Positions 11,278 to 39,475 of a DNA stretch of 40,337 nucleotides are shown one piece after another. Under the pieces are notes generated by a model that did no database searches, was not told the origin of the DNA, and saw nothing but the letters and a program-made list of their open reading frames with translations. Within the stretch, counting starts at the first letter, position 1, and each line of letters starts with the position of its first letter. A program made the position numbers and the translations under genes. Origin of the DNA: Thermoplasmatota archaeon (GTDB taxonomy: Archaea; Thermoplasmatota; E2; JACPAO01; JAHFTW01); contig JBFJYU010000001.1 of assembly GCA_041622435.1 (NCBI GenBank), positions 1-40,337 of the forward strand, read 5' to 3'.

Positions 11278-11328
11278 TTTCAGGACGACTGGGACGTACG
11301 GTTTAGTTGTTGCTACCGATAACAAAAC

Positions 11329-16141: not shown

Positions 16142-19100
16142 ATGGTGGCGGTTGGTCTGTCGGGCACTGGCGCCCGCGCATTGGTTTTGGCGCTCCTGGT
16201 GGGCCTTCCCCTGGGAACCGCCCAGGCGCCCGCCGACGGCGCAGGCGCACAGTACGTCGTCGCGTTTTCCCAGGTGCCACCGACGCTGGCCATCGGCGAC
16301 GCATTTGCGGGCGCCGAGGTCGTGGCGATGGCTGATTCCCTCGGATTCATCCTGGTCCAGCCCGGCGATCCCGCCGCGTTCATGGCGCAGGTCCTGCGCC
16401 ACCCGGAGGTGCGCTACGTTGAGGAGAACCGGGTCGCGGTGCGCACGATGCTGGCGCCTGACGACCCTCGCTTCGACGACCAGTACGGACCCCAGCAGAT
16501 CCGGGCGCCGGAGGCGTGGGACACGCGTCTTGGCGGCGACGAGCGCACCGTCTGCATCGTGGACAGCGGCATTCGCTACACCCACGAGGATCTGGCCGGC
16601 TCGCGCTGGCTGGGCGGCTGGGATTTCGTCCATCGCACCGACGACCCCTGGGACGACAACGGCCACGGCACCCACGTGGCTGGCACGGCAGCGGCCGGCG
16701 TCGACAACGGCGTCGGCATCGCCGGCGTGGGCAACGTCGGATTCCTGGCGGTCAAGGCCCTTGACAGCAGGGGTTCGGGGTCGTTCTTCGACGTGGCCAG
16801 CGCGATTGCGTGGTGCGCCGACAACGGCGGCGACGTCATCAGCATGAGCCTGGGGTCGCCGTGGTTCTCGTGGACCCTGTTTGACGCCGTTCAGTACGCG
16901 TGGGGCCAGGGTGCTCTGCTGGTCGGGGCCGCCGGCAATAACGGCCCGTGCAACAACTGCATCGGCTACCCGGCTGCGCTGGACGAGGTGATCGCCGTGA
17001 CGTGCACGACGGCCACGGAGGCCCAGTGCGGTTTCTCGTCGGACGGGCCTGAGAGCGAACTGGCCGCGCCGGGGCAGTCGATCCTGTCGACCTACGTCGG
17101 CTCCGACAGTGATTACGCAGCCAAATCGGGCACCAGCATGAGCACCCCCCACGTGGCGGGCGTCGCCGCGCTCATTTGGAACCATGCGCCCGATCTGACC
17201 AATCAGCAGCTTCGCGACGTGCTGCAAAACTCGGCCAGGGACGCCGGGCCAACCGGTTGGGACGAACAGTACGGGTACGGCATCGTTGACGCCGCCGAGG
17301 CGATCGCGTCGCTGCGACCGCCGTCGCCGCCGCGCAACCTTGTGGCCACGCCGGAGGACGGGGCGATCCTGTTGACGTGGGACGAGCCGGCCGACCCGGG
17401 TGGTCTGGGCGTTGACATCTACTACGTCTACCGGGGCGCCGACGAAGCCACCATGACGCGCGTCGCCGAGACGACCCTGTTGTCCTACCGGGACTCGGGG
17501 CTTGGCGAGGGCGCGACGTTCACGTACGCCGTTTCGGCCGCCAGCGGCATGGGCGAGTCGGACCGTTCGGCATCGGTGACGGCGACATCCCTGATGGGGC
17601 CGGCCGCGGCGTTCGCGTGGACGCCCGAGCTCCCGGAGCCGGGCCAAGAGGTCCAGTTCCAGGACCAGTCGACGGATTCGGACGGCAGCGTGGCGGCCTG
17701 GTCGTGGGACTTCGGGGACGGCGAGGGCAGCGACCAACGTCACCCGAGCCACACGTTCTCTTCCGATGGCACGTTCACGGTGCGCCTGACCGTTACGGAT
17801 TCAGACGGCCTGGAAGACACGGCGAGCGCCGACATCCTGGTCAACGCGGCCCCGACGGCCTCTTTCGACCACACGCCCGAGGCGCCGGACACGCAGGACG
17901 AAATCCAGTTCACGGACACGTCAACGGACGCCGATGGCAGCGTGCAGGCGTGGCACTGGGACTTGGGCGACGGGACCATCAGCTCGGATCAGAACCCGAC
18001 GCACCGCTTCCCCGACAACGGCGACTACGTGGTGACACTGACGGTGACCGACGACGACGGCGCGAACGACACGACCAGCCGGACGGTGGCGGTCAGCAAC
18101 GTTGCTCCGGCGGCCAGCTTCACCTATGCGCCCTCCGCGCCGACCACGGCGGATACGGTGGCGTTCACCGACGGCTCGTCGGACGTCGACGGCACCGTGG
18201 TGGCTTGGAGTTGGGACTTCGGCGACGGCGCCACCAGCAGCGAGCAGCATCCGAGCCACCGTTACGCCGACGACGGCACCTACACGGTGACCCTGACGGT
18301 CAGCGACGACGACGGGGCGGACAACACGACGGTCCAGGCGATCACGGTCACGAACCTTGCCCCGACGGCCGCCTTCGCGTACAGCCCGGCGAGCCCAAGC
18401 ACCGCCGACGACGTGGCTTTCACGGACGAATCGCTCGATGCCGACGGCACCGTCGCGTCTTGGGCCTGGGACTTCGGCGACGGCGCCACCAGCAGCGAGC
18501 AGCATCCGAGCCACAGCTACGCGGATGATGGAAGCTACACGGTGACGCTGAGCGTGACGGACGACGACGGAGCCACAGCCGAGGCGTCGCAGACCGTGAG
18601 CGTGACGAACGTGGCGCCGGTGGCCGGCTTCACGACCAGCCCGGAGGACCCGACAACCCAGGTTGACATCGACTTCACCGACACGTCAACGGATTCGGAT
18701 GGCTCCGTCGTGGACTGGAACTGGGACTTTGGTGACGGCGCCAACAGCACCGAGGCCAACCCTAGCCACCGCTACGCCGACGACGGCACGTACACGGTCA
18801 CGCTCACCGTCACGGACGACGACGGCGCCACCGACGCCACCAGCCAGACGGTCACGGTGGCCAACGTGGCGCCGACGGTGGATTTCAGTTACTCGCCGGC
18901 CGAGCCGACGACGCAGGACGAGGTGCAGTTCACCGATGCTTCAGGCGACCTGGACGGCACGGTCGTGGCGTGGAACTGGGACTTCGGCGACGGCTCGGCC
19001 AGCGACGACCAGAACCCGACCCACCGCTTCCCCGACGACGGCGTCTACGCCGTCACGCTCAGCGTCACGGATGACGACGGCGCGACGGCGGCCACAACGA

Positions 19101-19666
19101 TCGACGTGACGGTCACTAACGTCGCGCCCGAGGCGAGTTTCAGCCATGACCCGATCGAGCCCCGAACCACCGACACGGTCACCTTCGCCGACGCCTCCAG
19201 CGACATCGATGGCACCGTCGTGGCCTGGAACTGGGACTTCGGCGACGGGGAGTCCAGCGACGACCAGAACCCGACTCACCAGTACGCAGCCGTCGGCACC
19301 TACACGGTGAGCCTGACGGTCACGGACAACGACGGCGCCACGGGCTTGGTAAGCGTGGACATCACGGTCGTGGACCCGCCAAGCGCGCCGCGGGACATCT
19401 CGGCCCGGCCGGGCCCGGGGCTTGGGGATATTGACGTGCGCTGGACCAGGCCCGCATCCGACGGGGGCGCGCCCCTGCTCGGGAACCTGATCTACCGCAG
19501 CGACGGCGGCGACTTCGAGTTGATCGCCGATATCGGGAATTACCGCCGCTACGTGGATGACGATCGGAAGCTGGGCACCATCTACACCTACTACGTGGTG
19601 CCGTACAACCGCGCCGGTGAGGGACCCGCATCCGACACGGCGTCGGCGGCCGGCACCGGCTTGTGA
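16142..19666 (+). CDS. Secreted subtilisin-like serine protease (S8) with the architecture Fn3 - 7x PKD - Fn3
   Basis: Signal peptide. Catalytic triad motifs VCIVDSGI, HGTHVAG and GTSMSTPHVAG. Seven WxWDFGDG PKD repeats. Fn3-like segments flank the PKD array. Confidence 0.95.
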   Translation: MVAVGLSGTGARALVLALLVGLPLGTAQAPADGAGAQYVVAFSQVPPTLAIGDAFAGAEVVAMADSLGFILVQPGDPAAFMAQVLRHPEVRYVEENRVAVRTMLAPDDPRFDDQYGPQQIRAPEAWDTRLGGDERTVCIVDSGIRYTHEDLAGSRWLGGWDFVHRTDDPWDDNGHGTHVAGTAAAGVDNGVGIAGVGNVGFLAVKALDSRGSGSFFDVASAIAWCADNGGDVISMSLGSPWFSWTLFDAVQYAWGQGALLVGAAGNNGPCNNCIGYPAALDEVIAVTCTTATEAQCGFSSDGPESELAAPGQSILSTYVGSDSDYAAKSGTSMSTPHVAGVAALIWNHAPDLTNQQLRDVLQNSARDAGPTGWDEQYGYGIVDAAEAIASLRPPSPPRNLVATPEDGAILLTWDEPADPGGLGVDIYYVYRGADEATMTRVAETTLLSYRDSGLGEGATFTYAVSAASGMGESDRSASVTATSLMGPAAAFAWTPELPEPGQEVQFQDQSTDSDGSVAAWSWDFGDGEGSDQRHPSHTFSSDGTFTVRLTVTDSDGLEDTASADILVNAAPTASFDHTPEAPDTQDEIQFTDTSTDADGSVQAWHWDLGDGTISSDQNPTHRFPDNGDYVVTLTVTDDDGANDTTSRTVAVSNVAPAASFTYAPSAPTTADTVAFTDGSSDVDGTVVAWSWDFGDGATSSEQHPSHRYADDGTYTVTLTVSDDDGADNTTVQAITVTNLAPTAAFAYSPASPSTADDVAFTDESLDADGTVASWAWDFGDGATSSEQHPSHSYADDGSYTVTLSVTDDDGATAEASQTVSVTNVAPVAGFTTSPEDPTTQVDIDFTDTSTDSDGSVVDWNWDFGDGANSTEANPSHRYADDGTYTVTLTVTDDDGATDATSQTVTVANVAPTVDFSYSPAEPTTQDEVQFTDASGDLDGTVVAWNWDFGDGSASDDQNPTHRFPDDGVYAVTLSVTDDDGATAATTIDVTVTNVAPEASFSHDPIEPRTTDTVTFADASSDIDGTVVAWNWDFGDGESSDDQNPTHQYAAVGTYTVSLTVTDNDGATGLVSVDITVVDPPSAPRDISARPGPGLGDIDVRWTRPASDGGAPLLGNLIYRSDGGDFELIADIGNYRRYVDDDRKLGTIYTYYVVPYNRAGEGPASDTASAAGTGL
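17600..19380 (+). repeat. Seven tandem PKD-domain coding repeats with a 255-nt period
   Basis: An exact 48-nt duplicate (tgggacttcggcgacggcgccaccagcagcgagcagcatccgagccac) occurs at 18212-18259 and 18467-18514, exactly 255 nt apart. Confidence 0.9.
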
Positions 19667-19764: not shown

Positions 19765-20790
19765 CTAACGGTAACGGGCCGCCATCTCGTCGGTGCTCGT
19801 GGCATCCAGGGCCAGCACAAGGTTGTAGCTGGCCTCAACGATCGTGGCGAAGCCGGCCTCAAAGTTGGCGCGACCGCCGACGAAATCGTACACGTAGTCC
19901 ACCGTGTCACCCGGTCGATGGTACTCCGGGTAGTCCGCCGCGTAACGGCCGCCGGCAAACCGGTAGATGGGCACGCCGGCGTCACGGAAGCGCCGTTCGT
20001 CGGAGTTGCGGTCGTGGGTGTCCAGCACCTCCAAGCCCTCCTCCGGGTAACCCATGACACCGTTGAGCAAGTCCCGCCCGAAGGGCTGCAGGAACGGCAC
20101 CTTGTCGGCGTCGCCGGTCATCAGGTAGGCTTTCCAGTCGTGGCCGGGCCAGTTGATGCCGGTCATGTCGTAGCCGATGACGGTGTCGTAGACGTACGGC
20201 TCGTCACCCTCCAGCACCACGTCCTCCACGTAGCGTTGCGACGCGACGAGGCCCATTTCCTCGGCGTCGAAGAAGATGCACGCGATGGTCCGGCGGGTCT
20301 CGACCTGCGCCAGGGCCTCGCAGATGGCAAACTGCGCCGCGACGCCGGACCCATCGTCGTAGGCCCCCTGAATCGTGGCCGCCTGGGTGTCGTAATGGCT
20401 CACGAGGCCGATGCGGTGATCGGGCAGTTCGGTCCCGGTTCGCGTGGCCACGACGGCGTCGACCTGAAGGGGCACGGCGTCGGGCAGCCCCTGGCCGAAG
20501 CCGCCGGCCGGGTAGCTGCGAACCTCGACCTCGAAGCCGATGCGCTCCAGTTCCGACACCAGGTGCTCCCGCGCCAGGTCGTTATTGGGCAGGTGGGCGT
20601 CCCGCTTGACGTACGTGGTGACGTAGTCCTCCCACCAGTCGACGGACGTGGCGACGTTCCAGTGGAGCGCGGGCAGGCCTGCGGCGACCTCCTGGGCCAG
20701 GCTGGTAGGGGCTGCCGTCGGGGGGTTGTCGGAGATACACCCCGCCAGGGGAACCAGGGTCGCGACGACGACGGCAAGCAGGATGCGCAT
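19765..20790 (-). CDS. M28 family metallopeptidase lipoprotein
   Basis: Lipobox TLVPLAGC. Motifs IGLVSHYDT, GAYDDGSGVA and FFDAEEMGLVAS. The longest ORF starts at TTG 20841. Confidence 0.85.
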   Translation of the reverse strand: MRILLAVVVATLVPLAGCISDNPPTAAPTSLAQEVAAGLPALHWNVATSVDWWEDYVTTYVKRDAHLPNNDLAREHLVSELERIGFEVEVRSYPAGGFGQGLPDAVPLQVDAVVATRTGTELPDHRIGLVSHYDTQAATIQGAYDDGSGVAAQFAICEALAQVETRRTIACIFFDAEEMGLVASQRYVEDVVLEGDEPYVYDTVIGYDMTGINWPGHDWKAYLMTGDADKVPFLQPFGRDLLNGVMGYPEEGLEVLDTHDRNSDERRFRDAGVPIYRFAGGRYAADYPEYHRPGDTVDYVYDFVGGRANFEAGFATIVEASYNLVLALDATSTDEMAARYR

Positions 20791-20917
20791 GTGGGGGAGG
20801 CCGCGCCGGCGCACTTGAGTGTTGTCGGAGGCTCCTTTCAAGCGGAGCTGGCCGCAACGGCGGCGCGACGCGCGTGTGCGCCAACCGGCGGATGGCCGGC
20901 CCGGCCGGAGTGCCGCT

Positions 20918-25185: not shown

Positions 25186-26166
25186 GTGGTTATCGTGACC
25201 GTTTCCAAGACGCTACTCCTGTTCGCCCTGGTGGCGGCCACTGGCCTGTCCGGCTGCTTCGGCGCCGGCAACACGCTCCAGGCGACCATGACGTACACCG
25301 CGTACGACCCCGACACCGGCGCCGTGCTGGTCGACGATGCCACCGGCGCCCCCATTGCCGGCGTCTCCATCACCTTCCACCCCGGCAGCGGCGACTCCGG
25401 CTTTGGCACCGAATTCGAGCGCCAGGTCATGGCGGCGGGCGTCAACCAGACCGTCAACGTCACCACCCGGGCGGACTACGTGGAACAGGTCGGACGCGAG
25501 CGCGTGTTCCCGTCCAGTTCCGCGCTTGTCGAGGTCGGCTACGCCGAATTCGTCGGCGCCCTGGGCGAGCCCACGGTCGGCCAGACGTTCGACTACAGCC
25601 AGCTTTACCCAGCGCGCGTCGAGGTCGTGAACGAGCCGATCACCGAAGACGCGGTCGTCACGGAGACCGATCCTGATACGGGCGAGACGACCGAGCGCAC
25701 CGAAACCAGGGTCGTGCAGCCGGGAACCGTCACCTTCCGCGTCATCCCCGAACCGGGACAACGCGACCCGGTCCCCGCTGTCGGCGCCGTCCTGATCACC
25801 CTGGTCGAAGGCGACCAGATCACGCAGATGCTGGAACCCACCGTCGGCGCGAAGTTCCCCATCATGGCCAGTCCCCAGGGAACGCCCCTCGGCCTGGCGC
25901 CCGGCCAATACCGGACGGTCGGCGCCAATGAGACGGCCATTCTGTACGAGTTCAGCCCGCACCCGTCGGCCATGCTGCTGGGCCGGGATGTCCTGATCCA
26001 GGCAACCCTGACATCGGTCACCTCGGCGGCCCTCGGCGAGGCCCCACCGGCCAGTGGAGCCAACTTCGGTGCTCGGACAAGCCCCCAGCTCAACGCCCCG
26101 GCCGTCGGCCCCGCCGACGCTGGACATGACCACGGTGACGACGGCCACGGCGGCCACGATCACTGA
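25186..26166 (+). CDS. Paralogous SlyD/FKBP-like lipoprotein (tentative) with a short His/Asp-rich tail
   Basis: Lipobox ATGLSGC. TMTYTAYDPDTGAVLV...VGQTFDY...LLGRDVLIQATLTSV parallels the upstream gene. The tail is GHDHGDDGHGGHDH. The start is GTG 25186 or GTG 25195. Confidence 0.6.
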   Translation: MVIVTVSKTLLLFALVAATGLSGCFGAGNTLQATMTYTAYDPDTGAVLVDDATGAPIAGVSITFHPGSGDSGFGTEFERQVMAAGVNQTVNVTTRADYVEQVGRERVFPSSSALVEVGYAEFVGALGEPTVGQTFDYSQLYPARVEVVNEPITEDAVVTETDPDTGETTERTETRVVQPGTVTFRVIPEPGQRDPVPAVGAVLITLVEGDQITQMLEPTVGAKFPIMASPQGTPLGLAPGQYRTVGANETAILYEFSPHPSAMLLGRDVLIQATLTSVTSAALGEAPPASGANFGARTSPQLNAPAVGPADAGHDHGDDGHGGHDH

Positions 26167-26999
26167 TCGAGCAGGGCAGCGGCGACGCGAACGGCTTGCA
26201 CCGTCTCGCCAACATCGTGGACGCGCACGATGGCAGCGCCACCTAGCACGGCGGCAACGGCCACGGCCACGGAGCCACCGAGGCGGCGGGCCGGCTCGGG
26301 CTCTCCCGTCACGGCGCCGATGAAGCGCTTTCGGCTCGCGCCGACCAGGATGGGGCAGCCAAGATCGACGAGCCGTGGCAGGGCTCGTACGATGGCGAGG
26401 TTGTCAGCGGGGTCGGCGCCGGGCCGGGCGCCAAAACCAAGCCCTGGGTCAAGCACCACGGCGGCGCGGGCAATGCCTGCCTGGACAGCGCGCTCCAGGA
26501 GAGCGGCGAGCCGCGTACGGGTGTGCTCCACGATGTCGCCGTCGCCGTCGTCCCAGCGCATGAGTACCACCGCGCAGTCGGCGTCTCGCACCACCCGCGC
26601 CATATGGGGGTCGCCCAGTCCGCTGACATCATTGACGAAGTCGGCGCCGGCGACCAGGGCGGCCCGGGCGACGCTCGCCTTCGACGTGTCGATGCTGATG
26701 ACGGCATCCGGCCGCGCGGCGCGAATGGCCCCGATGGCTGGCGCGATGCGGGCTTCCTCGACGTCCGCGGGCACGGGCGCCGCTCCGGGGCGGGTCGATT
26801 CGCCACCAACGTCGAGGATGTCGGCGCCCGCGTCGAGCATGTCGATCGCGCGTGCAGCGACCGCCGCGGGACTGGTCAGTTCGCCGCCATCGCTGAAGGA
26901 GTCAGGCGTGACGTTCAGAATCCCCATGACGAGCGGGCGATCGAGCACGAGGGTGCGGCCGCCAGCCAGCGGCAGTGACCGCGGGGCCAGTGCGGTCAC
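26160..26999 (-). CDS. folP: Dihydropteroate synthase
   Basis: GILNVTPDSFSDGG, DVGGESTRPG and the SRKRFIG-type motif. The GTG start overlaps the stop of the upstream micro-ORF (GTGA). Confidence 0.92.
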   Translation of the reverse strand: MTALAPRSLPLAGGRTLVLDRPLVMGILNVTPDSFSDGGELTSPAAVAARAIDMLDAGADILDVGGESTRPGAAPVPADVEEARIAPAIGAIRAARPDAVISIDTSKASVARAALVAGADFVNDVSGLGDPHMARVVRDADCAVVLMRWDDGDGDIVEHTRTRLAALLERAVQAGIARAAVVLDPGLGFGARPGADPADNLAIVRALPRLVDLGCPILVGASRKRFIGAVTGEPEPARRLGGSVAVAVAAVLGGAAIVRVHDVGETVQAVRVAAALLDQ

Positions 27000-27121
27000 C
27001 CCAGCAGCGCGCGCCTGGCCTGGGCGAGGGACTGGGGTAACAGCAGCAAGCCGGCCAGGGCAACCATGGCGGCGGCTGCGGAGCCAAGGACCAGCACCAG
27101 GATCAGGATCAGGTCGATCAT
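26996..27121 (-). CDS. 41-codon hydrophobic micro-ORF between pabC and folP (speculative)
   Basis: Hand translation: MIDLILILVLVLGSAAAAMVALAGLLLLPQSLAQARRALLG. GC3 is high. The ATG lies one codon (GCA) after, and in frame with, the pabC stop TGA. Its own TGA overlaps the folP GTG. Confidence 0.3.
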   Translation of the reverse strand: MIDLILILVLVLGSAAAAMVALAGLLLLPQSLAQARRALLG

Positions 27122-27124
27122 TGC

Positions 27125-28066
27125 TCAGTCTCCGTTGACGCGGTCGCGGCCACCGCGAATCATGGCCTCCAGGCTGTGGGAGACCTGCATCGTGAGGTCA
27201 CCCTTCTCGCCGGGACCAAGGGGTTGATCCTGGTAGCGCGTGATCGGGAGAACGCCGCCAACGGTGTTGGTTAGCCAGGCCTCGTCGGCCTTGGCGAGGG
27301 TCGCCGGCTCCAGTTCATCGACGACCTCGAAGTCGCCCTCCGCCAGGAGTTCAAGCACTGCGGCGCGGGTGACGCCGGCTCGGGCGCCCTCCTCGGGGCC
27401 CGGCGCGTACACCGTGTCCCCGGAGCGGGCAAAGATGTTGCTCGTGGTTGCCTCGCAGACGCGTCCGTGTTCGTTGAGCAGGATCGCATCGTGGGCCATG
27501 AGCCGGAGCGCCTCGCGGCGGGCTGCGATGTGGGGCAGGAAGCTCAGGGTTTTGCAGACGGCCAGGGGGTCTCCGGTGAATTTGCGCTGCCGGGCCACGA
27601 CGACATGGACGCCGAGGCTGTGGTAGCGCATTGGGTACGGCTTGAACTTCTTGGTGAGGCCCGTGATGGCGTAACCGCGGCCGTCGCCGGTCAGGTCGTC
27701 CAGGACGCCTCCGGTGACGTTGACGCGCAGGTACAATTCGTCGCCGAATTCGTTGCGCCCGCGGTGGACCAGGGCCTCGATGGCGGCGCGGGTCTCGTCG
27801 AGAACACCCTCAACGAGCCCAATGGCGGCTGCGGACCGACCCAGTTGCTCGAGGTGGTCTTCGAGCCTGAAGAGGCGGCCGTTGGAGGTCCGCAGGGTCT
27901 CGAAGACGCCGTCGCCGAGAAGGTAGCCCCGGTCGTTCAGGGGAACCCGCGCGTCGCGCAGGTCGACCACTTCTCCACCGACGTAAGCCAGCCCTTCCGC
28001 GGGCTGGTTGGCGGTGTCTTCGACCAGGGACGACGTGATGGTGGCGGCGGGCGGCTTTGTGCTCAT
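27125..28066 (-). CDS. pabC: Class IV aminotransferase-fold protein. The operon context suggests aminodeoxychorismate lyase.
   Basis: NDRGYLLGDGVFETLR, and operon context with pabB, folC and folP. ATG 28066 overlaps the pabB/A stop (ATGA). The track extension to 28666 is Arg/Pro junk inside pabB/A. Confidence 0.75.
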   Translation of the reverse strand: MSTKPPAATITSSLVEDTANQPAEGLAYVGGEVVDLRDARVPLNDRGYLLGDGVFETLRTSNGRLFRLEDHLEQLGRSAAAIGLVEGVLDETRAAIEALVHRGRNEFGDELYLRVNVTGGVLDDLTGDGRGYAITGLTKKFKPYPMRYHSLGVHVVVARQRKFTGDPLAVCKTLSFLPHIAARREALRLMAHDAILLNEHGRVCEATTSNIFARSGDTVYAPGPEEGARAGVTRAAVLELLAEGDFEVVDELEPATLAKADEAWLTNTVGGVLPITRYQDQPLGPGEKGDLTMQVSHSLEAMIRGGRDRVNGD

Positions 28067-30156
28067 GGGGTGGTCTCCAAGAAGGCCAGGACGATCTCCA
28101 GTCCCCGGTCGGTTGAAAGGGATTCCGGGTGCACCTGCAGACCCCAGGTGGGGTGCTGGTTGTGGCGGAGGGCCATGATGCGGCCGTCGGCAAGCCGGCC
28201 GGTCACCCGCAGCGTCGCGGGGAGGTCGGTTTCTGACACGATGAGGGAGTGGTAGCGTGTGGCTGTCCATGGCGATGGCGCGGCGGCGAGCGGGCCGCGG
28301 CCGTCGTGGGTGATCGTGTCGGTCTTGCCGTGCACGGGCGGGCATTGGACGACGTTGGCGCCGAAGGCTGTCGCGATGGCTTGGTGGCCGAGGCAGACGC
28401 CGAGGATGGGGATCCGGCCGGACAGGGCCTTGACGATCTCGATGCTGCAGCCGGCGTCCTCGGGTCGGCCGGGGCCGGGGCTGATGATCAGGTGGGTGGG
28501 GTCGAAGGCCTCGACGGCGGCGCGCCAGTCGGCGTCGTTGCGCAGGACCTGGACCTCGGCGCCGAGGGCGGCGGCGTAGTCGGCGAGGTTGTGGACGAAG
28601 CTGTCCTCGTTGTCGATCACCAGGACCCGGGCCTGGACTTGTCGGGGCGGTTGCGGGGGCGACCACGACCCGTGTCGGGAGACCTCGCCGAGGCGGGCGC
28701 GGCTGCCGCCACCGGTGTCGCCGCTGGCGGCCTCAAGCAGCGCCTGGGCCTTGTTTCCAGCCTCGATCCATTCCCGCGTCGCCTCGCTGTCGGCCACGAT
28801 GCCGCTGCCGGCGGAGACGCTGGCCCGACCCCCGGCGAGAACCAGCGTGCGAATCATGATGTTCCACGCGGCGGCGCCGGAGAGGCTAAGGTAGCCCGCG
28901 CTGCCGGTGTAGGGCCCGCGCGCGACCGGCTCGGCCTCGTGGATGCGCTGCATCGCGCGCAATTTGGGGGCGCCGGTGATCGTGCCGCCGGGAAACAGGG
29001 CGGTCAGCCAGTCCACGAAGTGGGTGCCGGGGCGCACGCTGCCGGTCACCGACGAGACCAGGTGCATCACGTGGCGGTAGCGCTCGACGCTGTACGCCTC
29101 GGCGACGCGGGTGGTGCCGGGTACGCTGACGCGGGCGACGTCGTTGCGCACCAGGTCCACGAGCATCGTGTGCTCCGCCCGCTCCTTGGGGTCCGCCAGC
29201 AACTCCCGCTCCAGGGCCTCGTCGACGTTGGGTTCGGCTCCGCGCGGCCGCGTACCGGCGATCGGGCGGCTGGTGATGACGGCGCCACCCGCCGGGTCCG
29301 GCTGGACGGTGAAGAGCTGCTCCGGGCTGCCGCTCACGACGGCGTGGTCGCCGAAGTCAAGCAGCGCCATGTAGGGACTCGGATTGGCTTCCTGCAACCG
29401 CGCAAACAGCACGGCTGGGTCGGCGCGGCAGTCGGTCGTGAAGCGCGTGGAGATGTTGGCCTGGAACAGGTCGCCCTCGGCCACGTGGGCCTTCACGCGG
29501 TCGACGGCGGCCTCGAACCGCGCTTGGTCCATGCTGGGCGTCCACTCGCTTCCCGCCTCGGGCTCGATGGCAGGCGGCGGCGCCTGCCGGGCCGCTCGCG
29601 CCAGGGCCCCCACCCTGTCGCGGGGCCTGCGCAGGCCCTTGAGAACCCCCTCGGGCGCCGAGTCGGGAGGCCTGACCACGGTGGCGTGGGCGACGGCGGT
29701 TTGCTCGCGCCGGTCGAACACGATGGCGTCGAGGCAGAGGCGTAGCACCGCTTCGGGCAGCGGGTCTGCGTCCGAGCCGGCCCGGCCAGGCATACGGTCG
29801 TCCAGGTGGCGCCCGAACTCGTAACCGAAGTAGCCCACAAACCCGGCGGTGAATCCCGGCTCCATGTCCCCCCGACACCAGTCGCGGGCCAGGGCCTCAA
29901 GGTACTCGGCGGGGGCCTCGTCGCGTCGTCTCAGCACGCCGCCGCGCCAGCGCTCCACCACCGCGCCATGCTCCACGCGGACCTCCAGCAGCGGGGTCGT
30001 CGCCAGGATGGCCCGGTTCGAATCGGGGTGGTCGCCGAGGCCGTCCAGCAGGAGAACCTGGTGGCCGGCGGCCCGCAGCGCCCGGTACGCCTCAAGGGGG
30101 TCGACCCAAGGGAGTTCCTGGCTGCGCCGGCGCAGACCGCGACTACTGGGTGCCAC
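28063..30156 (-). CDS. pabB: Fused chorismate-utilising component I (PabB/TrpE-like) and C-terminal glutamine amidotransferase (PabA/TrpG-like). Probably aminodeoxychorismate synthase.
   Basis: Chorismate-binding motifs (NPSPYMALL, PGGTITGAPK). The GATase part begins at about 28630 (RVLVIDNEDSF, GVCLGHQ, HPES). The proposed GTG 30156 overlaps the folC 3' end by 14 nt. The track ORF start at 30519 lies inside folC. Confidence 0.85.
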   Translation of the reverse strand: MAPSSRGLRRRSQELPWVDPLEAYRALRAAGHQVLLLDGLGDHPDSNRAILATTPLLEVRVEHGAVVERWRGGVLRRRDEAPAEYLEALARDWCRGDMEPGFTAGFVGYFGYEFGRHLDDRMPGRAGSDADPLPEAVLRLCLDAIVFDRREQTAVAHATVVRPPDSAPEGVLKGLRRPRDRVGALARAARQAPPPAIEPEAGSEWTPSMDQARFEAAVDRVKAHVAEGDLFQANISTRFTTDCRADPAVLFARLQEANPSPYMALLDFGDHAVVSGSPEQLFTVQPDPAGGAVITSRPIAGTRPRGAEPNVDEALERELLADPKERAEHTMLVDLVRNDVARVSVPGTTRVAEAYSVERYRHVMHLVSSVTGSVRPGTHFVDWLTALFPGGTITGAPKLRAMQRIHEAEPVARGPYTGSAGYLSLSGAAAWNIMIRTLVLAGGRASVSAGSGIVADSEATREWIEAGNKAQALLEAASGDTGGGSRARLGEVSRHGSWSPPQPPRQVQARVLVIDNEDSFVHNLADYAAALGAEVQVLRNDADWRAAVEAFDPTHLIISPGPGRPEDAGCSIEIVKALSGRIPILGVCLGHQAIATAFGANVVQCPPVHGKTDTITHDGRGPLAAAPSPWTATRYHSLIVSETDLPATLRVTGRLADGRIMALRHNQHPTWGLQVHPESLSTDRGLEIVLAFLETTP

Positions 30157-31483
30157 GAATCTCCTCCACCGGTTCGCCCGTGATGGCCGCACGGGCCTCG
30201 CCGACCAGAAACAGGCTTCCGGCCACGAGGATCGTGCGTGCGCCCGCCTCGACGGCCAGCCGCAACGCCGTGGTGGCGTCCGGCGCCGCGTCGAAGGGCA
30301 TGAACTCGCCCTCCAGGTGTCGCCCGATGGGCGCCGGCGGCAGACCGCGCGGGGATCGCAGCGGCACCCCCCAGACATGGGCGGCCAGGGGAGCCCACTG
30401 GTCAAGCATGGTCTCCCAGGGCTTGTCGGCGGCGAAACCGACGATGAGATGGAATCCGGAAAGGTGGCGCTTGGCCAGGTGGCGGCGCAGGGCCACGGCG
30501 CCGGCCTCGTTGTGGGCACCGTCCAGGATGACTTCGACGAGCGCGTCGCCGGCGGCGGGACCGGCCAGCATGGACCCCTGCACGTGGACGCTCTCCATCC
30601 GGCCAGGCATCACCGTCTCCCGCAGCGCCGTATGCAGCGCCAGGTCGGGCACGCTGACCCCGAGCCCCCGCAGCGCGTCCACGGCCGCGACGGCCAGGGC
30701 CGCGTTGTCCAATTGGTGCTCGCCCGCCGGCCCCACGTCGTAATGCGCGTCGCCCCGCGGCGTGGCCAACCGCATGCCGTTGACATCGGGCACGATGTGG
30801 TAATCCTCGCCGAGAATGCTCATCGGCACCCGCAAGCCGTGGCTCGCGACCTTCAGTACAGACAGCGCGTCGCCGCTGACGCCGGTGACGCACGGCACGC
30901 CCGGCTTCATGATGCCCGCCTTCTCGGCCGCAATCAACCCGATGTGGTCCCCCAGGTAGCCCGCGTGGTCCAGGGAAACGTTGGTGATCACCGTCAGCAC
31001 GGGGTCAAGGACATTGGTGGCGTCCAGCCGGCCACCCATGCCGGTTTCGACCACGGCCCAGGTGACACCCTCGTCGCGAAACAGCACAAACGCAAGCGCC
31101 GTCACGATTTCGAAGAACGTGGGGGGCTGATCGTCGCCATCGAGCGCCTCGACGTGTGGCCGAATGGCCGCCAGCCCCTCGGCGACCGCCGAAGGCAACA
31201 CCTGGCGACCGTTGATTTCGATGCGTTCGGTGAAGCGAACCAGGTGCGGGCTCGTCGTCAAGCCCACCTTGTAACCGGCCGCCCGCAGGGCCCCCGCCAT
31301 GAAGCGCGCCACGCTGCCCTTGCCGTTGGTGCCCGCGATGTGGATCGAGCGAAACGCATCCTGCGGGTTGTCGAGCGCGGCCAGCAACCGACGCACCTTG
31401 TCCAGTCCGAGCTTGATGCCCAACGCCTGCCGGCCGTACAGCCACGCCAGCGCCTCCTCGTACGGCCACTCCAGATCGTCCAT
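30143..31483 (-). CDS. folC: Folylpolyglutamate synthase / dihydrofolate synthase
   Basis: P-loop HIAGTNGKGS and Mur-ligase-like domains. The ATG overlaps the purN stop by 1 nt (TGATG). Confidence 0.92.
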   Translation of the reverse strand: MDDLEWPYEEALAWLYGRQALGIKLGLDKVRRLLAALDNPQDAFRSIHIAGTNGKGSVARFMAGALRAAGYKVGLTTSPHLVRFTERIEINGRQVLPSAVAEGLAAIRPHVEALDGDDQPPTFFEIVTALAFVLFRDEGVTWAVVETGMGGRLDATNVLDPVLTVITNVSLDHAGYLGDHIGLIAAEKAGIMKPGVPCVTGVSGDALSVLKVASHGLRVPMSILGEDYHIVPDVNGMRLATPRGDAHYDVGPAGEHQLDNAALAVAAVDALRGLGVSVPDLALHTALRETVMPGRMESVHVQGSMLAGPAAGDALVEVILDGAHNEAGAVALRRHLAKRHLSGFHLIVGFAADKPWETMLDQWAPLAAHVWGVPLRSPRGLPPAPIGRHLEGEFMPFDAAPDATTALRLAVEAGARTILVAGSLFLVGEARAAITGEPVEEIRGTQ

Positions 31484-32157
31484 CAGAAACCGTCCGGGTA
31501 GAGGGCGCCAGGCAGCGGCCGCACGTCAGCGTCAAACCACGACGAACCGGCCTCGACGACCACGCCATCCGCTGCCGTGCGCACCTGGCCCCGCGCAATC
31601 AGGTCCACGGTGCGGGGCAGGATCTGGTGCTCCAGCGCCAGCACCCGCGCCGCCAGGCTCTCCATGGTATCGTCGCGAAGAATCGGCACCGCCGCCTGCA
31701 AGATGATCGGGCCGCCATCCAGGTCGGCCGTGACGAAATGGGTCGTGCAGCCTGCCACCCGCGCGCCGGCGGCCAGCGTGTCGCGCACGCCGTGGGCGCC
31801 CTTGAAACTGGGCAGCAGCGCCGGATGGATGTTGATGATGCGACCCGCAAACGCCTCGCAAAACGCCGTACCCAGGATGCGCATGAAGCCCGCCAGCACG
31901 ATCAGGTCAGGCCTCTCGGCCCGCAGCACCTCGATCAGGCGCGCGTCGTACGCCGCCGCCGACTCGCCGGTCTCGCGGGGCAATTCAACGAGCGCGGGAA
32001 CGCCGGCGGCCCGCGCTTTGTCCAGGCACGCGGCACCCGGCTTGTCCGTCAGGACCAGTCCCACGCGGGCGTCCACGCGCCCGGCGTCGATCTGACGCAG
32101 CAGGGCCTCCAGGTTGGAGCCGCGGCCGGAAGCGAGGACAGCGACCTTCAGGGTCAC
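31483..32157 (-). CDS. purN: Phosphoribosylglycinamide formyltransferase
   Basis: VAVLASGRGSNLEAL, INIHPALLP, and FVTADLDGGPII. Confidence 0.93.
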   Translation of the reverse strand: MTLKVAVLASGRGSNLEALLRQIDAGRVDARVGLVLTDKPGAACLDKARAAGVPALVELPRETGESAAAYDARLIEVLRAERPDLIVLAGFMRILGTAFCEAFAGRIINIHPALLPSFKGAHGVRDTLAAGARVAGCTTHFVTADLDGGPIILQAAVPILRDDTMESLAARVLALEHQILPRTVDLIARGQVRTAADGVVVEAGSSWFDADVRPLPGALYPDGF

Positions 32158-32229
32158 GCGGCCGGGCAGGCCCGGTGGATTTCAAGGGTTTGGGGACCGG
32201 TCTCGGCCCGGGGGCCGGCATCCGCCAGC

Positions 32230-32448
32230 CTACGCCCTGCACACCGGAGGTCGGCCATGGTCCACGGCTTGCGCTGACTGCCGCATGCAAACGGCCCGCC
32301 GTTCGAGTTCGCACAGCGCGCCTGGCACCGGGTCAAGGGGGTTGACGTAGCACGCGATGGCCGACGCCGTGTCGACGGCAGCCGGGCCCGGCGCGGCCAT
32401 CGACGCGATTGCAAACAGGGCGACGAACAGCATGATGCGGGGGAACAT
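32230..32448 (-). CDS. Small secreted 4-Cys peptide (72 aa precursor), hypothetical
   Basis: ATG 32448 gives the signal-like MFPRIMLFVALFAIASMAAPGPAAV, followed by a mature part with 4 Cys. GC3 is high. The track ORF starts at TTG 32472. Confidence 0.4.
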   Translation of the reverse strand: MFPRIMLFVALFAIASMAAPGPAAVDTASAIACYVNPLDPVPGALCELERRAVCMRQSAQAVDHGRPPVCRA

Positions 32449-32525
32449 GGCTGGGCACTCCCACGACGCCAAGCGGACTGCCCCGGTTTAGGCTTGGTGC
32501 CCGTGCAGGTGACGTTGCCCACCCG

Positions 32526-33902
32526 CTAAATTTCGGGCCGAGTCGCGACGTGTAGCATGCTGGCATGCACCGTGTGTTGATTGCCGGCCGCATCGACGGC
32601 GGTCACCTGCACGACCTGCTCCAGGGGCGCCAGGAGGGGTGGGTCAAAGAACCACTTGTACGGAGGGGCCGCAGCGGTGTGACCCGTGCCATCCTGTGCC
32701 TCGAAGCTGACGCTTGCAATCCCACACACGTCGGTGGCGTTAGCGACAATGGTCACGCCGCCGACCACCACCGGAATCCCCAGGGGGCTCTGAAGGGGCC
32801 CCGGTTGATCGAGGATATAAATGGTGTGCTTGGCGGGGCGCGTGATCGTGGTGGAAGGGGCCACCGTGTCCTCGATGACCACGGTGGTCGCAGCCCTCAC
32901 GGTTGCATGGCCATCCTCCACGGTCAATGACACCTCGGTGGCACCCAGGGGGAACGTCCCTGTTGGCGTGGGAGATGTGGGATCGTCGAAAGTCACGCCC
33001 GGCGCGTCCCAGTGCAACTGGATCGGATCACCATTGGGGTGATGGCTTCCCGAGCCGTCCAGCGTGACGGCAGCACCGTCGGGCCCCGTGCACTCCTGCC
33101 TCGGGACCGGCGCAATCGCGGCGATCGGGGCGAGCCGTCGTATGAATTCGCTGTACTGAACCTCAGGCTGTGAAAAGTTGTAGAAACCGACGCGTCCGTC
33201 CTGGAATTGACCCGTAACATCGAAGACGACCAATCCGTCCGCGAATGGGCCTTGGCCGCCCGTAATGGTGATCCGGATGTTCGTCGCCGTGTGGAGGAGT
33301 TTGATTTCGTATTCGGTGAACTCCCTCCATCCAAGATCCGTGCCAAGGTTTCGCCCCAGAACGTCAATCATGGGGCACTTATCCTCGTCTTTGCTCCACA
33401 TGCAATTACCAATCACCTGGCCGCCGGCATAGTGGCTGAAACTGCCCGTGATTTCGCCCTCTATGTGGTACAACGTGAGGCCCGCACGGGCTTGGTGTCC
33501 GCGGTGGCTTTGGTCCCCCTTCTTCCAATCCAGGATGTAGGTGTTCACGGAGGTTGGCTCGTGGCCTAATTCGGCCAGAGGCGACTGGAAGCCGAAAACG
33601 AATCCGATGAAATCGTCGTCGTCGCTTGTCTGTACGCTAATCGTGCCGCGTGTCAAAGTGCCGCGCGTGTTTTCGGGATCGACAAAGTACGTGGGATCCC
33701 CGTTGATGTGTTGCATGACGCTCTGGCCGTCAGGGGCCAGGCGCCAGTCGCCGTAGGCGGATGTTCCTTGCTGGAGCCAACCGCTGAGGTCGACGACTTC
33801 GTCTTGGCCGTTGCTTGGCAGGGCCGTCGCGAGGAGGGCCATGACAGTGACGGCGCTTGCAATGGTAAGGCGCCTTCGGCGTTGTAGCGTTTTTTCGATC
33901 AT
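32526..33902 (-). CDS. Secreted LamG/TSPN-like (concanavalin-like) domain protein with C-terminal Ig/HYR-like domains
   Basis: ATG 33902 gives a signal anchor (RRRRLTIASAVTVMALLATALP). GDWRLAPDGQSVMQHINGDPTYFV...DDDDFIGFVFGFQ is a LamG/TSPN hallmark. The track extension to 34154 is junk. Confidence 0.8.
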   Translation of the reverse strand: MIEKTLQRRRRLTIASAVTVMALLATALPSNGQDEVVDLSGWLQQGTSAYGDWRLAPDGQSVMQHINGDPTYFVDPENTRGTLTRGTISVQTSDDDDFIGFVFGFQSPLAELGHEPTSVNTYILDWKKGDQSHRGHQARAGLTLYHIEGEITGSFSHYAGGQVIGNCMWSKDEDKCPMIDVLGRNLGTDLGWREFTEYEIKLLHTATNIRITITGGQGPFADGLVVFDVTGQFQDGRVGFYNFSQPEVQYSEFIRRLAPIAAIAPVPRQECTGPDGAAVTLDGSGSHHPNGDPIQLHWDAPGVTFDDPTSPTPTGTFPLGATEVSLTVEDGHATVRAATTVVIEDTVAPSTTITRPAKHTIYILDQPGPLQSPLGIPVVVGGVTIVANATDVCGIASVSFEAQDGTGHTAAAPPYKWFFDPPLLAPLEQVVQVTAVDAAGNQHTVHASMLHVATRPEI

Positions 33903-33920
33903 CGTGCCAGCCGCGCCGTC

Positions 33921-33929
33921 ATTTGTATA
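33921..33929 (-). promoter_or_regulatory. TATA-like box (TATACAAAT) about 23 nt upstream of ATG 33902
   Basis: The reverse strand reads CTATACAAATGACGGCGCGGCTGGCACGATG. Confidence 0.4.
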
Positions 33930-34056
33930 GCAGACTAAGTATCCTTGCTTTGGCCCTGGATTGTCGGGGTAGCAACATGGCCGCCGCGCAGGGGGTGGAA
34001 CAGGGCGCGGGCGGGACCGGTGTTCATGTTGTGGCCCTGCTGCTGCACGCATGAAT

Positions 34057-34097
34057 TGTTGGGTGGTTCGCGTCCTTGCGTGCCGGCCCACCCAACA
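34057..34097. other. 10-bp stem / 21-nt loop hairpin inside an unassigned 340-nt spacer
   Basis: TGTTGGGTGG (34057-34066) pairs with CCACCCAACA (34088-34097). Confidence 0.2.
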
Positions 34098-34271
34098 CGA
34101 ATCCGCCGCCGACTCCGTGGCCAAGCCGGATCGACACGTAGGTGGGATCGGCACATGGCGGGGCCGCGTCGCGACCCCCCGGCGTCAGCGGTCATGCGCA
34201 GCCGGGATCGACGTGGTACGGGCACCCGCCCCAGCCGCCAGCCTTGCTATGCCGGTCGGGGGCAACGGGGT

Positions 34272-35864
34272 TCAGTGGCGGAAGCTGCGCTGCCCCGAGA
34301 ACATCATGGCGATGCCGTGCTCGTCGGCCGCCTGGATGACCTCGTCGTCGCGGATCGATCCACCCGGTTGGACGATGGCTACGACGCCGTTGGCGGCGGC
34401 GCCATCGATGCCGTCGCGGAACGGGAAGAAGGCATCGCTGGCCATGACGCTGCCCTTGATCTTGTCGCCGCCCTTGTGGGTCGCGATGGTCACGGAGTCC
34501 ACGCGGGCGGTTTGGCCGCCACCGATGCCGACCGTGCGCGTGCCTTGCACGAACACCACGGCGTTGGATCGGATGGCCTTCACGCAGCGCGCGGCGAAGA
34601 CCATGGACTCCAGTTGCTCGTCGGTCGGCGCGGTCTTCGTAACGGTCTTCCAGGACTCCGCCTCGTACGGCTTGAGGTCCCGGTCCTGCACCAGCAGGCC
34701 GCCGGTGATGGAACGGATCTGGGTGCCACTGCGCCGGTACGGGCCGTCGAGGCCGGGCACTTCGAGGATGCGCAGGTTCTTCTTTTTCTTGAGCAACGCG
34801 AGGGCAGCGGCGTCGAAGCCGGGCGCGATGACGATCTCAAGAAACAGCTTGGAGAGTGCCTCGGCCGTCGCGGTGTCGAGGCGGCGATTGAACGCGACGA
34901 TGCCACCGAAGGGACTGTAGGGGTCGCAGGCGAGGGCGTCGTTCCAGGCGTCGTGGATGGTGTCGGCCGTCGCGATGCCGCAGGGCGTGGCATGCTTGAC
35001 GATCACGCAAGCAGGCTCTTCCGGGAACTCCTTGACCGCCTCCAGGCAGATGTCGGCGTCGAGGAGGTTGTTGTAACTGAGTTGCTTGCCGTGCAGTTGC
35101 TTGGCGCGCACGATGCTGGGCTCGACGACGTTGCGGGGCCCGGCCTTCTCGTAGAACGCGGCGCGCTGGTGGCTGTTCTCACCGTACCTCAGAACCTCGC
35201 GGCGGTCGTAGGCGAACACCAGGTGTTCCGGGTAGTCCGTCAGGCCGAAGCGCTTGGAGAGCACGCGGGCGATGACGGCGTCGTAGCGCGCGGTGACCTG
35301 GAAGGCGCGCAGGGCGAGTTCCTGGCGCAGGGCGAGGCCAACGTCGCCGGCCTTCAGCGCCGTGGCCACGCGGTCGTATTGCTCCGGGTGGGTCACGACC
35401 AGCACGTCGCGGTGGTTTTTCGCCGCGGCCCGGATGAGGCTGGGGCCACCGATGTCGATTTGTTCGATGAGGTCCGCGAGTGCGGCATCGTCCGCCGCCG
35501 TCTGCTCGAACGGGTACAGGTTGACGCAGACCAGGTCGATGCCGGCGAGGCCGTGGTCGTCCATGGCCTGGGCGTGGTCGGGGTTTTCCCGCACGCCGAG
35601 GATGCCGCCGAAGACCTTCGGGTGGAGGGTCTTGAGCCGACCACCCATCATTTCGGGGAATCCGGTCACGTCGCTGACGTCTTCGACGCGAAGGCCGTGT
35701 TCGCGCAGCAAACCTGCCGTTCCGCCGGTTGAAACCAGTTCGACGCCGCTGGCGGCGAGCCGCTTGGCGAAGTCGACGACACCGGTCTTGTCACTGACGC
35801 TCACGAGCGCTCGCCGAATCTTCGGCTGGGCCTGCCCCGTCACGGCGCGGCCATGGAGGGGCAT
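34272..35864 (-). CDS. purH: Bifunctional AICAR transformylase / IMP cyclohydrolase
   Basis: ALVSVSDKTG, GGTAGLL, GRLKTLHP, and the C-terminal IVQPGGSIRD. The candidate starts are ATG 35864 and GTG 35843. GTG 35843 is the more likely leaderless start because TTTTTAA (35864-35870) lies 24 nt upstream of it. Confidence 0.95.
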   Translation of the reverse strand: MPLHGRAVTGQAQPKIRRALVSVSDKTGVVDFAKRLAASGVELVSTGGTAGLLREHGLRVEDVSDVTGFPEMMGGRLKTLHPKVFGGILGVRENPDHAQAMDDHGLAGIDLVCVNLYPFEQTAADDAALADLIEQIDIGGPSLIRAAAKNHRDVLVVTHPEQYDRVATALKAGDVGLALRQELALRAFQVTARYDAVIARVLSKRFGLTDYPEHLVFAYDRREVLRYGENSHQRAAFYEKAGPRNVVEPSIVRAKQLHGKQLSYNNLLDADICLEAVKEFPEEPACVIVKHATPCGIATADTIHDAWNDALACDPYSPFGGIVAFNRRLDTATAEALSKLFLEIVIAPGFDAAALALLKKKKNLRILEVPGLDGPYRRSGTQIRSITGGLLVQDRDLKPYEAESWKTVTKTAPTDEQLESMVFAARCVKAIRSNAVVFVQGTRTVGIGGGQTARVDSVTIATHKGGDKIKGSVMASDAFFPFRDGIDGAAANGVVAIVQPGGSIRDDEVIQAADEHGIAMMFSGQRSFRH

Positions 35865-35870
35865 TAAAAA
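35864..35870 (-). promoter_or_regulatory. TATA-like box (TTTTTAA) for purH
   Basis: The reverse strand reads CTCTTTTTAATGCCCCTCCATGGCCGCGCCGTGACG. Confidence 0.4.
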
Positions 35871-36038
35871 GAGTGTGGGAGCCAGTGGTGCCGGCGTATG
35901 GGGCCGCCCCAGAACCGGAAGACCAGCCTGCGGACCGCCCGCGCGCGGCAGCGCCTGGCCCGCAGCCAGCCCGGCTGCCCGGCGTGAGGCGGGCGGTTGT
36001 GCCCCCAAGTGGTTTGCCGCGGCGCCAAGACCACAAGC

Positions 36039-38797: not shown

Positions 38798-39322
38798 CTA
38801 CTCGACGTATTCCAAATTATCCGAGTTGATCCATGCAATAAGGTCGAGGGCAACCTCGCAGCTCTCCGCCACCTCGGGATTGGGGTCCTCCAGGTACCGG
38901 CGCAGGACATCCACTGACTCGGGCAGACCAATGGCGCCCAGCGCCTCGGCCGCCTCGTGGCGCACCATCACGTGCTCGTCCTCCGCCTCCAGCACCCGCG
39001 TCAGGGCCGGCACGGCATGGGTATCCTGCATCTGGCCGAGAACGTAGGCGAGCTCGTGGCGCAGCAACGCGGACGGGTCGGCGAACGCTGCGGCCAGCGC
39101 ATCGACAGCGTCGGCGCCGCCGAGGTTGCGCAGGGCGAAGACGGCGCGCATGCGCTGAAACATCGGCAACGACCCGTCGAGCAACTGGGCGCGCATGCGC
39201 GCGACCTCAGACGATGCCGCCGGGTTGTCCGGGGTGGCCGGGGCCAACTGGGGCGGCGCCGGGTCGACGCTGGCATAACCGCTCTCGTCGCGCCACGCCT
39301 CAAGTTGCTCCCTGCGATCCAC
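38798..39322 (-). CDS. Half-size deoxyhypusine hydroxylase (DOHH)-like HEAT-repeat protein with two His-Glu motifs
   Basis: YASVDPAPP, MFQRMRAVFALRNLGG, SALLRHELAYVLGQMQD, VMVRHEAAEALGAIG and EVAESCEVALDL match my recollection of the linker and C-terminal half of eukaryotic DOHH. GTG start, with an in-frame TAA 9 codons upstream. An alternative ATG lies at 39196. Confidence 0.8.
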   Translation of the reverse strand: MDRREQLEAWRDESGYASVDPAPPQLAPATPDNPAASSEVARMRAQLLDGSLPMFQRMRAVFALRNLGGADAVDALAAAFADPSALLRHELAYVLGQMQDTHAVPALTRVLEAEDEHVMVRHEAAEALGAIGLPESVDVLRRYLEDPNPEVAESCEVALDLIAWINSDNLEYVE

Positions 39323-39475
39323 GCGACGGCCGACTCCGGCGGCGATTTATCGCTTGCGGCGGCCGGCTACGCCCGGCCCGCACCCCAGCCGTCCACGAAC
39401 CCCACACGCCGGCGCACCCGCCGAGGCACGGACCGGGGCCCGGACGCCACACAGGCCAACACGTGTTCGAGCCTC

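Follow-up and report, generated by a model that had tools for sequence, protein, structure and literature searches.

We describe a stand-alone, half-size homologue of eukaryotic deoxyhypusine hydroxylase (DOHH) in a 40,337-nucleotide stretch of DNA from a Thermoplasmatota archaeon (contig JBFJYU010000001.1, positions 1 to 40,337; the whole of the analyzed stretch is hereafter called the window). The coding sequence lies at 38798..39322 on the reverse strand and specifies a 19-kDa protein of 174 amino acids (aa), with a GTG start codon at 39322-39320 and a TAG stop codon at 38800-38798 according to the open reading frame (ORF) list and its translation. The protein is homologous to DOHH, half its size, encoded on its own and of archaeal origin. 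The explanation that we consider likely as a whole is that this four-HEAT protein is the DOHH orthologue of the Thermoplasmatota, that it would act as a homodimeric di-iron hydroxylase of aIF5A, and that its form resembles that of DOHH before duplication. The location, length and GTG start given in the original prediction, which was made from the DNA letters alone, agree with the ORF list, and all of the peptide blocks that it quoted are found in the 174-aa product.

The similarity to DOHH is strong and extends over nearly the whole protein. In a phmmer search of the Protein Data Bank (PDB), the best match is human DOHH (4d4z; structures 4D4Z/4D50) with an E-value of 4.9e-69 and approximately 50% identity. 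This match consists of two ungapped stretches, the first pairing query residues 38-167 with residues 10-139 of the human N half (120.9 bits) and the second pairing query residues 23-162 with residues 146-285, which comprise the linker and the C half (117.0 bits). The matches listed from a search of 5.8 billion clustered proteins begin with half-size orthologues, followed by eukaryotic full-length DOHHs at 45-58% identity (the figures from the protein searches are drawn from the top 120-150 matches listed, which are mostly two-domain eukaryotic proteins). The half-size orthologues among the matches listed, from Thermoplasmatota metagenome-assembled genomes (MAGs) at NCBI, are 169-172 aa long and 78-81% identical over their full length, including the N-terminus MDRREQL..W. 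The preference for DOHH over generic HEAT/PBS proteins, which had been put forward as a check on the assignment, is thus seen both in the PDB (4.9e-69 vs. 2e-6 for the best natural generic match) and database-wide, where the top matches that are not orthologues are eukaryotic DOHHs. The reciprocal comparison gives the same picture, as both halves of chicken DOHH match only the locus at 38798-39322 when searched with tblastn against the window (52.7% and 49.7% identity). The original prediction had also aligned the product to the linker plus the C-terminal repeats of DOHH; only the leader is specific to the linker, and the four HEAT repeats fit the N half equally well.

These scores bear directly on the alternative that the protein is an ordinary PBS-lyase/HEAT scaffold, non-catalytic, whose likeness to DOHH reflects a generic repeat consensus. 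PBS-lyase HEAT-like proteins (CpcE/CpcF, NblB) and the archaeal protein MTH187 (1TE4) do have the same type of repeat, and theirs are the only Pfam families matched (HEAT_2 with 81 bits and HEAT_PBS with 65 bits); neither Pfam nor NCBIfam returned a DOHH-specific family for the 174-aa protein. Since neither collection gave any DOHH-specific match, we do not count their generic result against DOHH. The designed consensus alpha-Rep proteins in the PDB also score well when their stretches are summed. Compared stretch by stretch, however, DOHH reaches 117-121 bits, against at most 45 bits for the alpha-Rep proteins and 31 bits for CpcE (5n3u, E = 2e-6), the best natural generic HEAT match, and MTH187 is weaker still (E = 0.015). 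The NCBIfam equivalog models all remain below their cut-offs (NblB 34.3 bits against 300, CpcE 26.8 against 330 and CpeY 15.4 against 600), both DOHH halves align without gaps over 130-140 residues, and both His-Glu motifs are invariant in all 81 archaeal sequences compared. We know of no PBS-lyase HEAT-like protein that carries paired His-Glu metal motifs. A generic scaffold identity is therefore effectively refuted by the per-stretch scores, the database-wide preference for DOHH and the invariant motifs, and we assign it a very small probability.

Because the alignments are ungapped, residues map directly onto human DOHH. The first His-Glu motif, H89-E90 (39053..39058, reverse strand, within SALLRHELAYVLGQM), aligns with human H56-E57 and H207-E208, and the second, H122-E123 (38954..38959, reverse strand, within EHVMVRHEAAEALGAIG), aligns with H89-E90 and H240-E241. 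G96 (39035..39037, reverse strand) aligns with Gly63/Gly214, the glycine pair at the deoxyhypusine side chain, and the leader motif S18-V-D-P-A-P-P24 (39251..39271, reverse strand) aligns, in the second of the two stretches, with the SVDPAPP of the eukaryotic inter-domain linker. In human DOHH the di-iron center is anchored by H56, H89, E90, H207, H240 and E241, and the deoxyhypusine side chain is bound by E57, E90, E208 and E241 together with a glycine pair that is printed as G65/G214 (PMC9117371). We read the first of these glycines as Gly63 rather than the printed G65, as is indicated both by the alignment obtained here and by the offset of 151 residues from one half of DOHH to the other. 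The positions that bind deoxyhypusine are conserved in the archaeal protein, with E90, E123 and G96 mapping onto human E57/E208, E90/E241 and Gly63/Gly214, respectively. Relative to eukaryotic DOHH as known from the human structures and from yeast Lia1 (EC 1.14.99.29), the half-size protein is approximately 50% identical to each half without gaps and shares with a DOHH half both His-Glu motifs, the Gly of HELAYxLGQM, the ESCxVALD helix, the SVDPAPP segment and the four-HEAT fold.

The same half-size gene recurs in other archaea. A scan of prokaryotic genomes, with one genome per species, detected 154 loci, and the locus counts in this work refer to the best 80 of the 154. These fall into Thermoplasmatota MAGs with 64-80% identity, and Poseidoniales (Marine Group II, MGII) with 52-61% identity, so that at least 80 species of archaea, many being MGII of the ocean surface, have the half-size gene. 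Every one of the 80 loci holds a single half-size copy, with ORF lengths of 153-205 aa except in some high-GC genomes, where a few ORFs are over-extended, and in most of the loci an in-frame stop lies 10-90 nt upstream of the ORF. Independent gene calls for the same exact sequences give products of 160-169 aa on contigs of up to 1.1 Mb. The one half-size copy at 80/80 loci and these independent calls exclude an assembly truncation, in agreement with the original prediction, which had named truncation as an objection. No copy was found in the viral contigs that were scanned.

Conservation within the family is concentrated on the residues described above. H89-E90 and H122-E123, whose conservation among orthologues had been named as a point to verify, are identical in 81/81 archaeal sequences, as are G96 (the Gly of HELAYVLGQM) and the leader residues S18, D20, P21, A22 and P23. 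The further invariant positions are M54, F55, R57-R59, S84, L86-L87, A92-Y93-V94, Q97-M98, E116-H117, M119-V120-R121, A125-E126-A127, G129-A130-I131-G132, E153-S154-C155, V157-A158 and D160-L161, with A85 (80/81) and L159 (79/81) nearly so. The family is under purifying conservation across at least 80 species. Three MAGs that hold copies of the Thermoplasmatota or MGII type carry other names, namely "bacterium" (L008), "uncultured Halobacteriales archaeon" (L015) and "Yoonia sp." (L026), and the folate-gene synteny of L015 is that of the clade to which the window belongs (the window clade). These three are probably mislabelled or mis-binned and give no sign of a wider distribution.

At the locus itself, an in-frame TAA at 39347-39349 lies nine codons 5' of the GTG (the upstream translation reads ...RKR-stop-IAAGVGRR-V-DRREQ), as had been noted originally, and the ORF can therefore not be longer. 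The GTG at 39322 as the true start is well supported by the N-termini of the orthologues, which keep MDRREQL.aWR..SGY.SVDPAPP, and by a conserved TATA-like box upstream. The gene caller's product for this locus (P0045, 132 aa) begins instead at the ATG of Met42 and omits 41 conserved residues (39197-39322, reverse strand), the invariant S-x-D-P-A-P among them. A candidate archaeal BRE/TATA element (transcription factor B recognition element and TATA box), CGCAAGCG-ATAAAT, can be read at 39345..39358 on the reverse strand, approximately 24-36 nt 5' of the start codon, with the in-frame TAA falling within its ATAAAT. A similar element, cRCAAsc.ATAAat, stands at an equal distance from the start in seven window-clade loci. 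The geometry of archaeal BRE/TATA elements is generally known and is the basis for reading this one as the promoter of a leaderless mRNA; the candidate promoter suggests leaderless transcripts for the half-DOHH gene in the window clade. When the protein and chicken DOHH were searched with tblastn against all six frames of the window, a single locus was found, from which it follows that no second half is encoded in the window. The absence of the N-terminal half, which the original prediction had claimed for this locus, thus extends to the window as a whole.

The predicted fold is that of one DOHH half. The AlphaFold2 monomer model contains eight helices (residues 34-48, 54-67, 69-81, 85-98, 101-112, 118-131, 135-141 and 149-165) that form four HEAT repeats at residues ~34-165 (38828..39223, reverse strand), also indicated by Foldseek and by the Pfam HEAT_2 and HEAT_PBS matches. 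The predicted local distance difference test score (pLDDT) is 86.8 overall and 94-98 in the helices, and it is low in the SVDPAPP leader. Foldseek places the monomer model on one half of 4d4z_A with a root-mean-square deviation of 0.8 A over 131 columns. The single polypeptide does not have the eight HEAT repeats and four His-Glu motifs of the eukaryotic enzyme, which is built as 4+4 repeats; the archaeal chain is half as long, with four repeats and two motifs. Since each half-length chain brings only two His-Glu motifs, oligomerization would be needed for a di-iron site, and as there is one copy per locus, a homodimer is the simplest working model.

Under this model, two identical chains would pack concave face to concave face, in the manner of the N and C halves of eukaryotic DOHH, and each chain would contribute two His-Glu motifs so that the dimer rebuilds the four-motif di-iron center. 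The rebuilt center would then activate O2 and hydroxylate the deoxyhypusine of aIF5A to hypusine. To represent the dyad we modeled two copies fused head to tail with AlphaFold2, which gave a pLDDT of 79.4 and a predicted template modeling score (pTM) of 0.77 in a single-sequence prediction of an artificial fusion. The best PDB match of this model is the whole of human DOHH (4D4Z), with a target-normalized TM score of 0.86 over 312 columns, and continuous alpha-Rep solenoids reach a TM score of only approximately 0.4 against it. The fused model is consistent with a homodimer dyad, if weakly.

A homodimeric di-iron hydroxylase acting on aIF5A is the mechanism that we find best supported, and it seems to us quite probable. 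The choice of aIF5A as substrate is suggested because the deoxyhypusine-binding residues are invariant and the identity to the eukaryotic enzyme is approximately 50%. Homologues of deoxyhypusine synthase (DHS), moreover, have been reported in all sequenced archaeal genomes (PMC5178350), and the genes for an electron transport chain in Poseidoniales point to aerobic respiration (PMC6461757), as would suit an enzyme that depends on O2. Several points weigh against the assignment. The two copies in the dimer model are joined covalently and artificially, and as the network had 4D4Z in its training set and was given a single sequence, the model carries little weight. The window ORFs examined include neither an aIF5A nor a DHS gene, neither of these adjoins the half-DOHH gene in any locus, and none of the loci links it to translation genes. 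In early amino-acid analyses, Euryarchaeota, with Thermoplasmatales among them, yielded mainly deoxyhypusine (PMC5178350), although the sample lies outside the lineages with a half-DOHH gene. Finally, the half-DOHH gene of MGII shares 4 nt with a gene of the menaquinone pathway.

The last of these points is also what makes a different substrate conceivable. The protein might be a DOHH-like metal-dependent hydroxylase acting on a step of MGII menaquinone synthesis by the futalosine pathway, or on another polyamine-modified molecule. In approximately 60 Poseidoniales loci the first 4 nt of the half-DOHH gene lie within the end of a VitK2_biosynth gene, with other mqn-type genes upstream, and this arrangement agrees with such a role, as does the lack of a nearby aIF5A or DHS gene. 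The order seen in approximately 55-60 MGII loci (L022-L082; for example L022, 4429-12020) is a P-type ATPase, a CofH/MqnC-like radical SAM protein, a VitK2_biosynth gene, a WD40 gene on the opposite strand, a second VitK2_biosynth gene (MqnA/MqnD-like) with the 4-nt overlap, the half-DOHH gene and the primase small subunit. This arrangement is, however, not conserved outside MGII and is absent in the window clade, where the neighbors are secreted proteins and purH/folate genes. The residues that contact the deoxyhypusine side chain in human DOHH (E57/E208, E90/E241 and G63/G214) are invariant in the archaeal family, and cross-domain identity of approximately 50% is unusual for enzymes that have switched substrate. 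The futalosine pathway, to our knowledge, has no need of an O2-dependent hydroxylation. We therefore regard another substrate as improbable, and a quinone-synthesis-linked role for the MGII protein in particular has a small chance of being correct.

The origin of the half-size form may be read in two ways. To place the archaeal family relative to the two halves of eukaryotic DOHH, 90 full-length DOHH-like representatives were cut into N and C halves and compared over 125 core columns. The 90 representatives are presumed eukaryotic; of seven cluster names checked, two can be identified as eukaryotic, one being cucumber and the other a marine picoeukaryote whose neighboring genes encode ubiquitin and a START domain, and another two are labelled as DOHH or as belonging to a eukaryotic collection. 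The mean core identity of the archaeal sequences is 0.43-0.46 to the N halves and 0.465-0.48 to the C halves, compared with 0.38 between N and C halves (0.39 within the same protein), 0.42 among N halves and 0.485 among C halves. By this measure the two halves lie at about the same distance from the archaeal family, which is nearer to each than they are to one another. The consensus states of all three groups agree in 66 of the 125 columns, the archaeal state equals that of the N half only in 16 and that of the C half only in 13, and N and C share a state that differs from the archaeal one in 9. The log-likelihood ratio of the archaeal consensus under N vs. C frequencies is approximately zero (-2.3 nats), and the few strict signature columns are divided between three C-like, two N-like and one that is neither. 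Taken together, the identities and consensus counts indicate that the branch leading to the node between N and C is shortest for the archaeal family, which shows a mosaic of N-like and C-like states.

This mosaic, short-branch position favors the reading that the archaeal family is a near pre-duplication form of DOHH, to which we would give close to an even chance. A eukaryotic DOHH would have arisen from such a gene through tandem duplication and fusion, in which case the linker would be the tail of the first copy plus the SVDPAPP leader of the second, and the leader of the first copy would have been lost. The segment is an N-terminal leader in the archaeal protein, and an internal linker in eukaryotic DOHH. 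A neighbor-joining (NJ) tree was built from the 81 archaeal sequences together with 90 N and 90 C halves (125 columns, 200 bootstraps), and the archaeal clade appears in it with a bootstrap value of 86%. That this clade joins where the C halves begin to radiate is a point against an origin before the duplication, but the branches there are near zero in length, and bootstrap support is only 23% for N monophyly and 18% for C monophyly. With internal branches and supports of this kind, the tree does not decide where the archaeal sequences stand with respect to the two halves.

The placement in the best NJ tree, among basal C halves, is what would be expected if the archaeal gene were instead the linker and C half of a fused DOHH from a eukaryote or stem eukaryote, acquired by ancient horizontal transfer with secondary fission and then spread vertically in the Thermoplasmatota. 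Such a history also agrees with the SVDPAPP leader, the sole feature exclusive to the archaeal family and the segment preceding the eukaryotic C half; with an archaeal profile that scores C halves above N halves when the leader is included; with a core identity to C that exceeds the identity to N by 2.5-3 points; and with the fact that no archaeal phylum besides Thermoplasmatota is represented among the best 80 of the 154 loci. Tandem duplication accounts for the leader equally well, however, and a transferred C half is difficult to reconcile with about equal numbers of exclusive consensus states and a likelihood ratio near zero, or with an archaeal family that is closer to both halves than the halves are to each other. 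The archaeal clade is also deep, with 62% identity between MGII and the window clade. Moreover, the nearest C halves are scattered over unrelated eukaryotes, so that no donor lineage stands out; an attempt to name a donor from the closest eukaryotic C halves was dropped, as these include cucumber and the marine picoeukaryote. An ancient eukaryote-to-archaeon transfer of half a gene thus seems to us rather unlikely, and we rate the pre-duplication-like reading somewhat above it.

Two other systems provide a useful comparison for the proposed activity. The bacterial protein EpmC (YfcM) hydroxylates Lys34 of EF-P, the bacterial homologue of the factor, and thereby performs the last hydroxylation of a modified lysine (PMC6105217). 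It would be a functional analogue of the proposed half-DOHH but is an unrelated protein with different chemistry, and no sequence similarity to it was seen in the searches run here. In Trichomonas vaginalis, a bifunctional DHS (TvDHS) has been proposed to carry out the hydroxylation itself, so that hypusine would be formed with no canonical full-length DOHH (PMC6105217), whereas the Thermoplasmatota have a dedicated DOHH-type protein.

Published work on archaeal aIF5A holds that archaeal genomes lack any DOHH orthologue and describes the archaeal hypusination pathway as unsolved (PMC5178350, PMC6105217). The archaeal protein thus occurs in hosts, Thermoplasmatota and MGII, for which published work denies DOHH. 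Two reviews of 2026 contain nothing on archaeal DOHH, and the searchable literature yielded no paper that ties DOHH to Thermoplasmatota, Poseidoniales or Asgard. Many MGII proteins of 162 aa nevertheless carry the automatic label "deoxyhypusine monooxygenase" in JGI/IMG, as does one NCBI MAG record (MEA3190336.1), and other NCBI labels for these proteins are "HEAT repeat domain-containing protein" or "hypothetical protein". For the half-size archaeal DOHH, database annotation is ahead of the literature, and a single four-HEAT half is a form of DOHH not described before in the literature searched. The term "deoxyhypusine monooxygenase" also occurs in a genomics paper on Snodgrassella (PMC9239279).

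The remainder of the window is in keeping with an archaeal source, which the original prediction had taken to be apparent. Its G+C content is 67.7%, it encodes archaeal-type proteins such as a PAC2 proteasome-assembly protein and an ATP-dependent DNA ligase, and the 12 kb downstream of the half-DOHH gene are collinear with contigs of Thermoplasmatota archaeon MAGs (L001 and L003 among others). Scans with Rfam and for tRNAs found no rRNA, tRNA or other Rfam family in the window. The neighbors in the window clade are uncharacterized proteins, one of them with a lipoprotein-like signal start (MKVLAPFAVALLLAGC), followed by purH, purN and folate genes. This folate/purine block (26160-36008, reverse strand) comprises Pterin_bind/folP-like, chorismate-binding plus GATase pabAB-like and Mur_ligase folC-like genes together with purN and purH, and its gene order is kept in Thermoplasmatota MAG contigs (L001, L004, L006, L011 and others). 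Further into the window are an S8 subtilase of 1174 aa with seven PKD domains and fn3 (16142-19666, forward strand) and, beside it, an M28 peptidase (19765-20841, reverse strand), which fit the proteolytic lifestyle described for related planktonic archaea. Two adjoining paralogous ORFs of approximately 580 aa, rich in Cys and Trp (7823-9568 and 9586-11325, reverse strand), share 69% identity over 483 aa; neither matches a Pfam family, and the approximately 80 loci compared contain no match to them.

With respect to archaeal hypusine, the archaea in which it has been detected are Crenarchaeota, and Thermoplasmatales were reported to contain mainly deoxyhypusine (PMC5178350). As the hypusine-containing archaea are Crenarchaeota and not Thermoplasmatota, the half-DOHH gene does not settle the origin of their hypusine. 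The hypusine of Sulfolobus and other Crenarchaeota is not explained by it, and no homologue has been reported there in the literature that we read. For the Thermoplasmatota, the fullest version of our proposal, which we hold tentatively and regard as possible, is that the protein is a surviving pre-duplication DOHH, that it works as a homodimeric HEAT enzyme of C2 symmetry and the peroxo-diiron type and provides MGII and related Thermoplasmatota with true hypusine, and that eukaryotic DOHH was derived from such a gene by tandem duplication and fusion. If this is true, the hydroxylation of deoxyhypusine would be no eukaryotic invention. An active enzyme would predict that uncultured aerobic Thermoplasmatota, some of which rank among the most abundant archaea in ocean surface waters, contain fully hydroxylated hypusine, and would provide a minimal symmetric model of how a HEAT-repeat scaffold forms a di-iron oxygenase site. 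It would also be a concrete candidate for the ancestor from which eukaryotic DOHH arose by duplication and fusion, and as such would bear on the question of archaeal gene donors to early eukaryotes.

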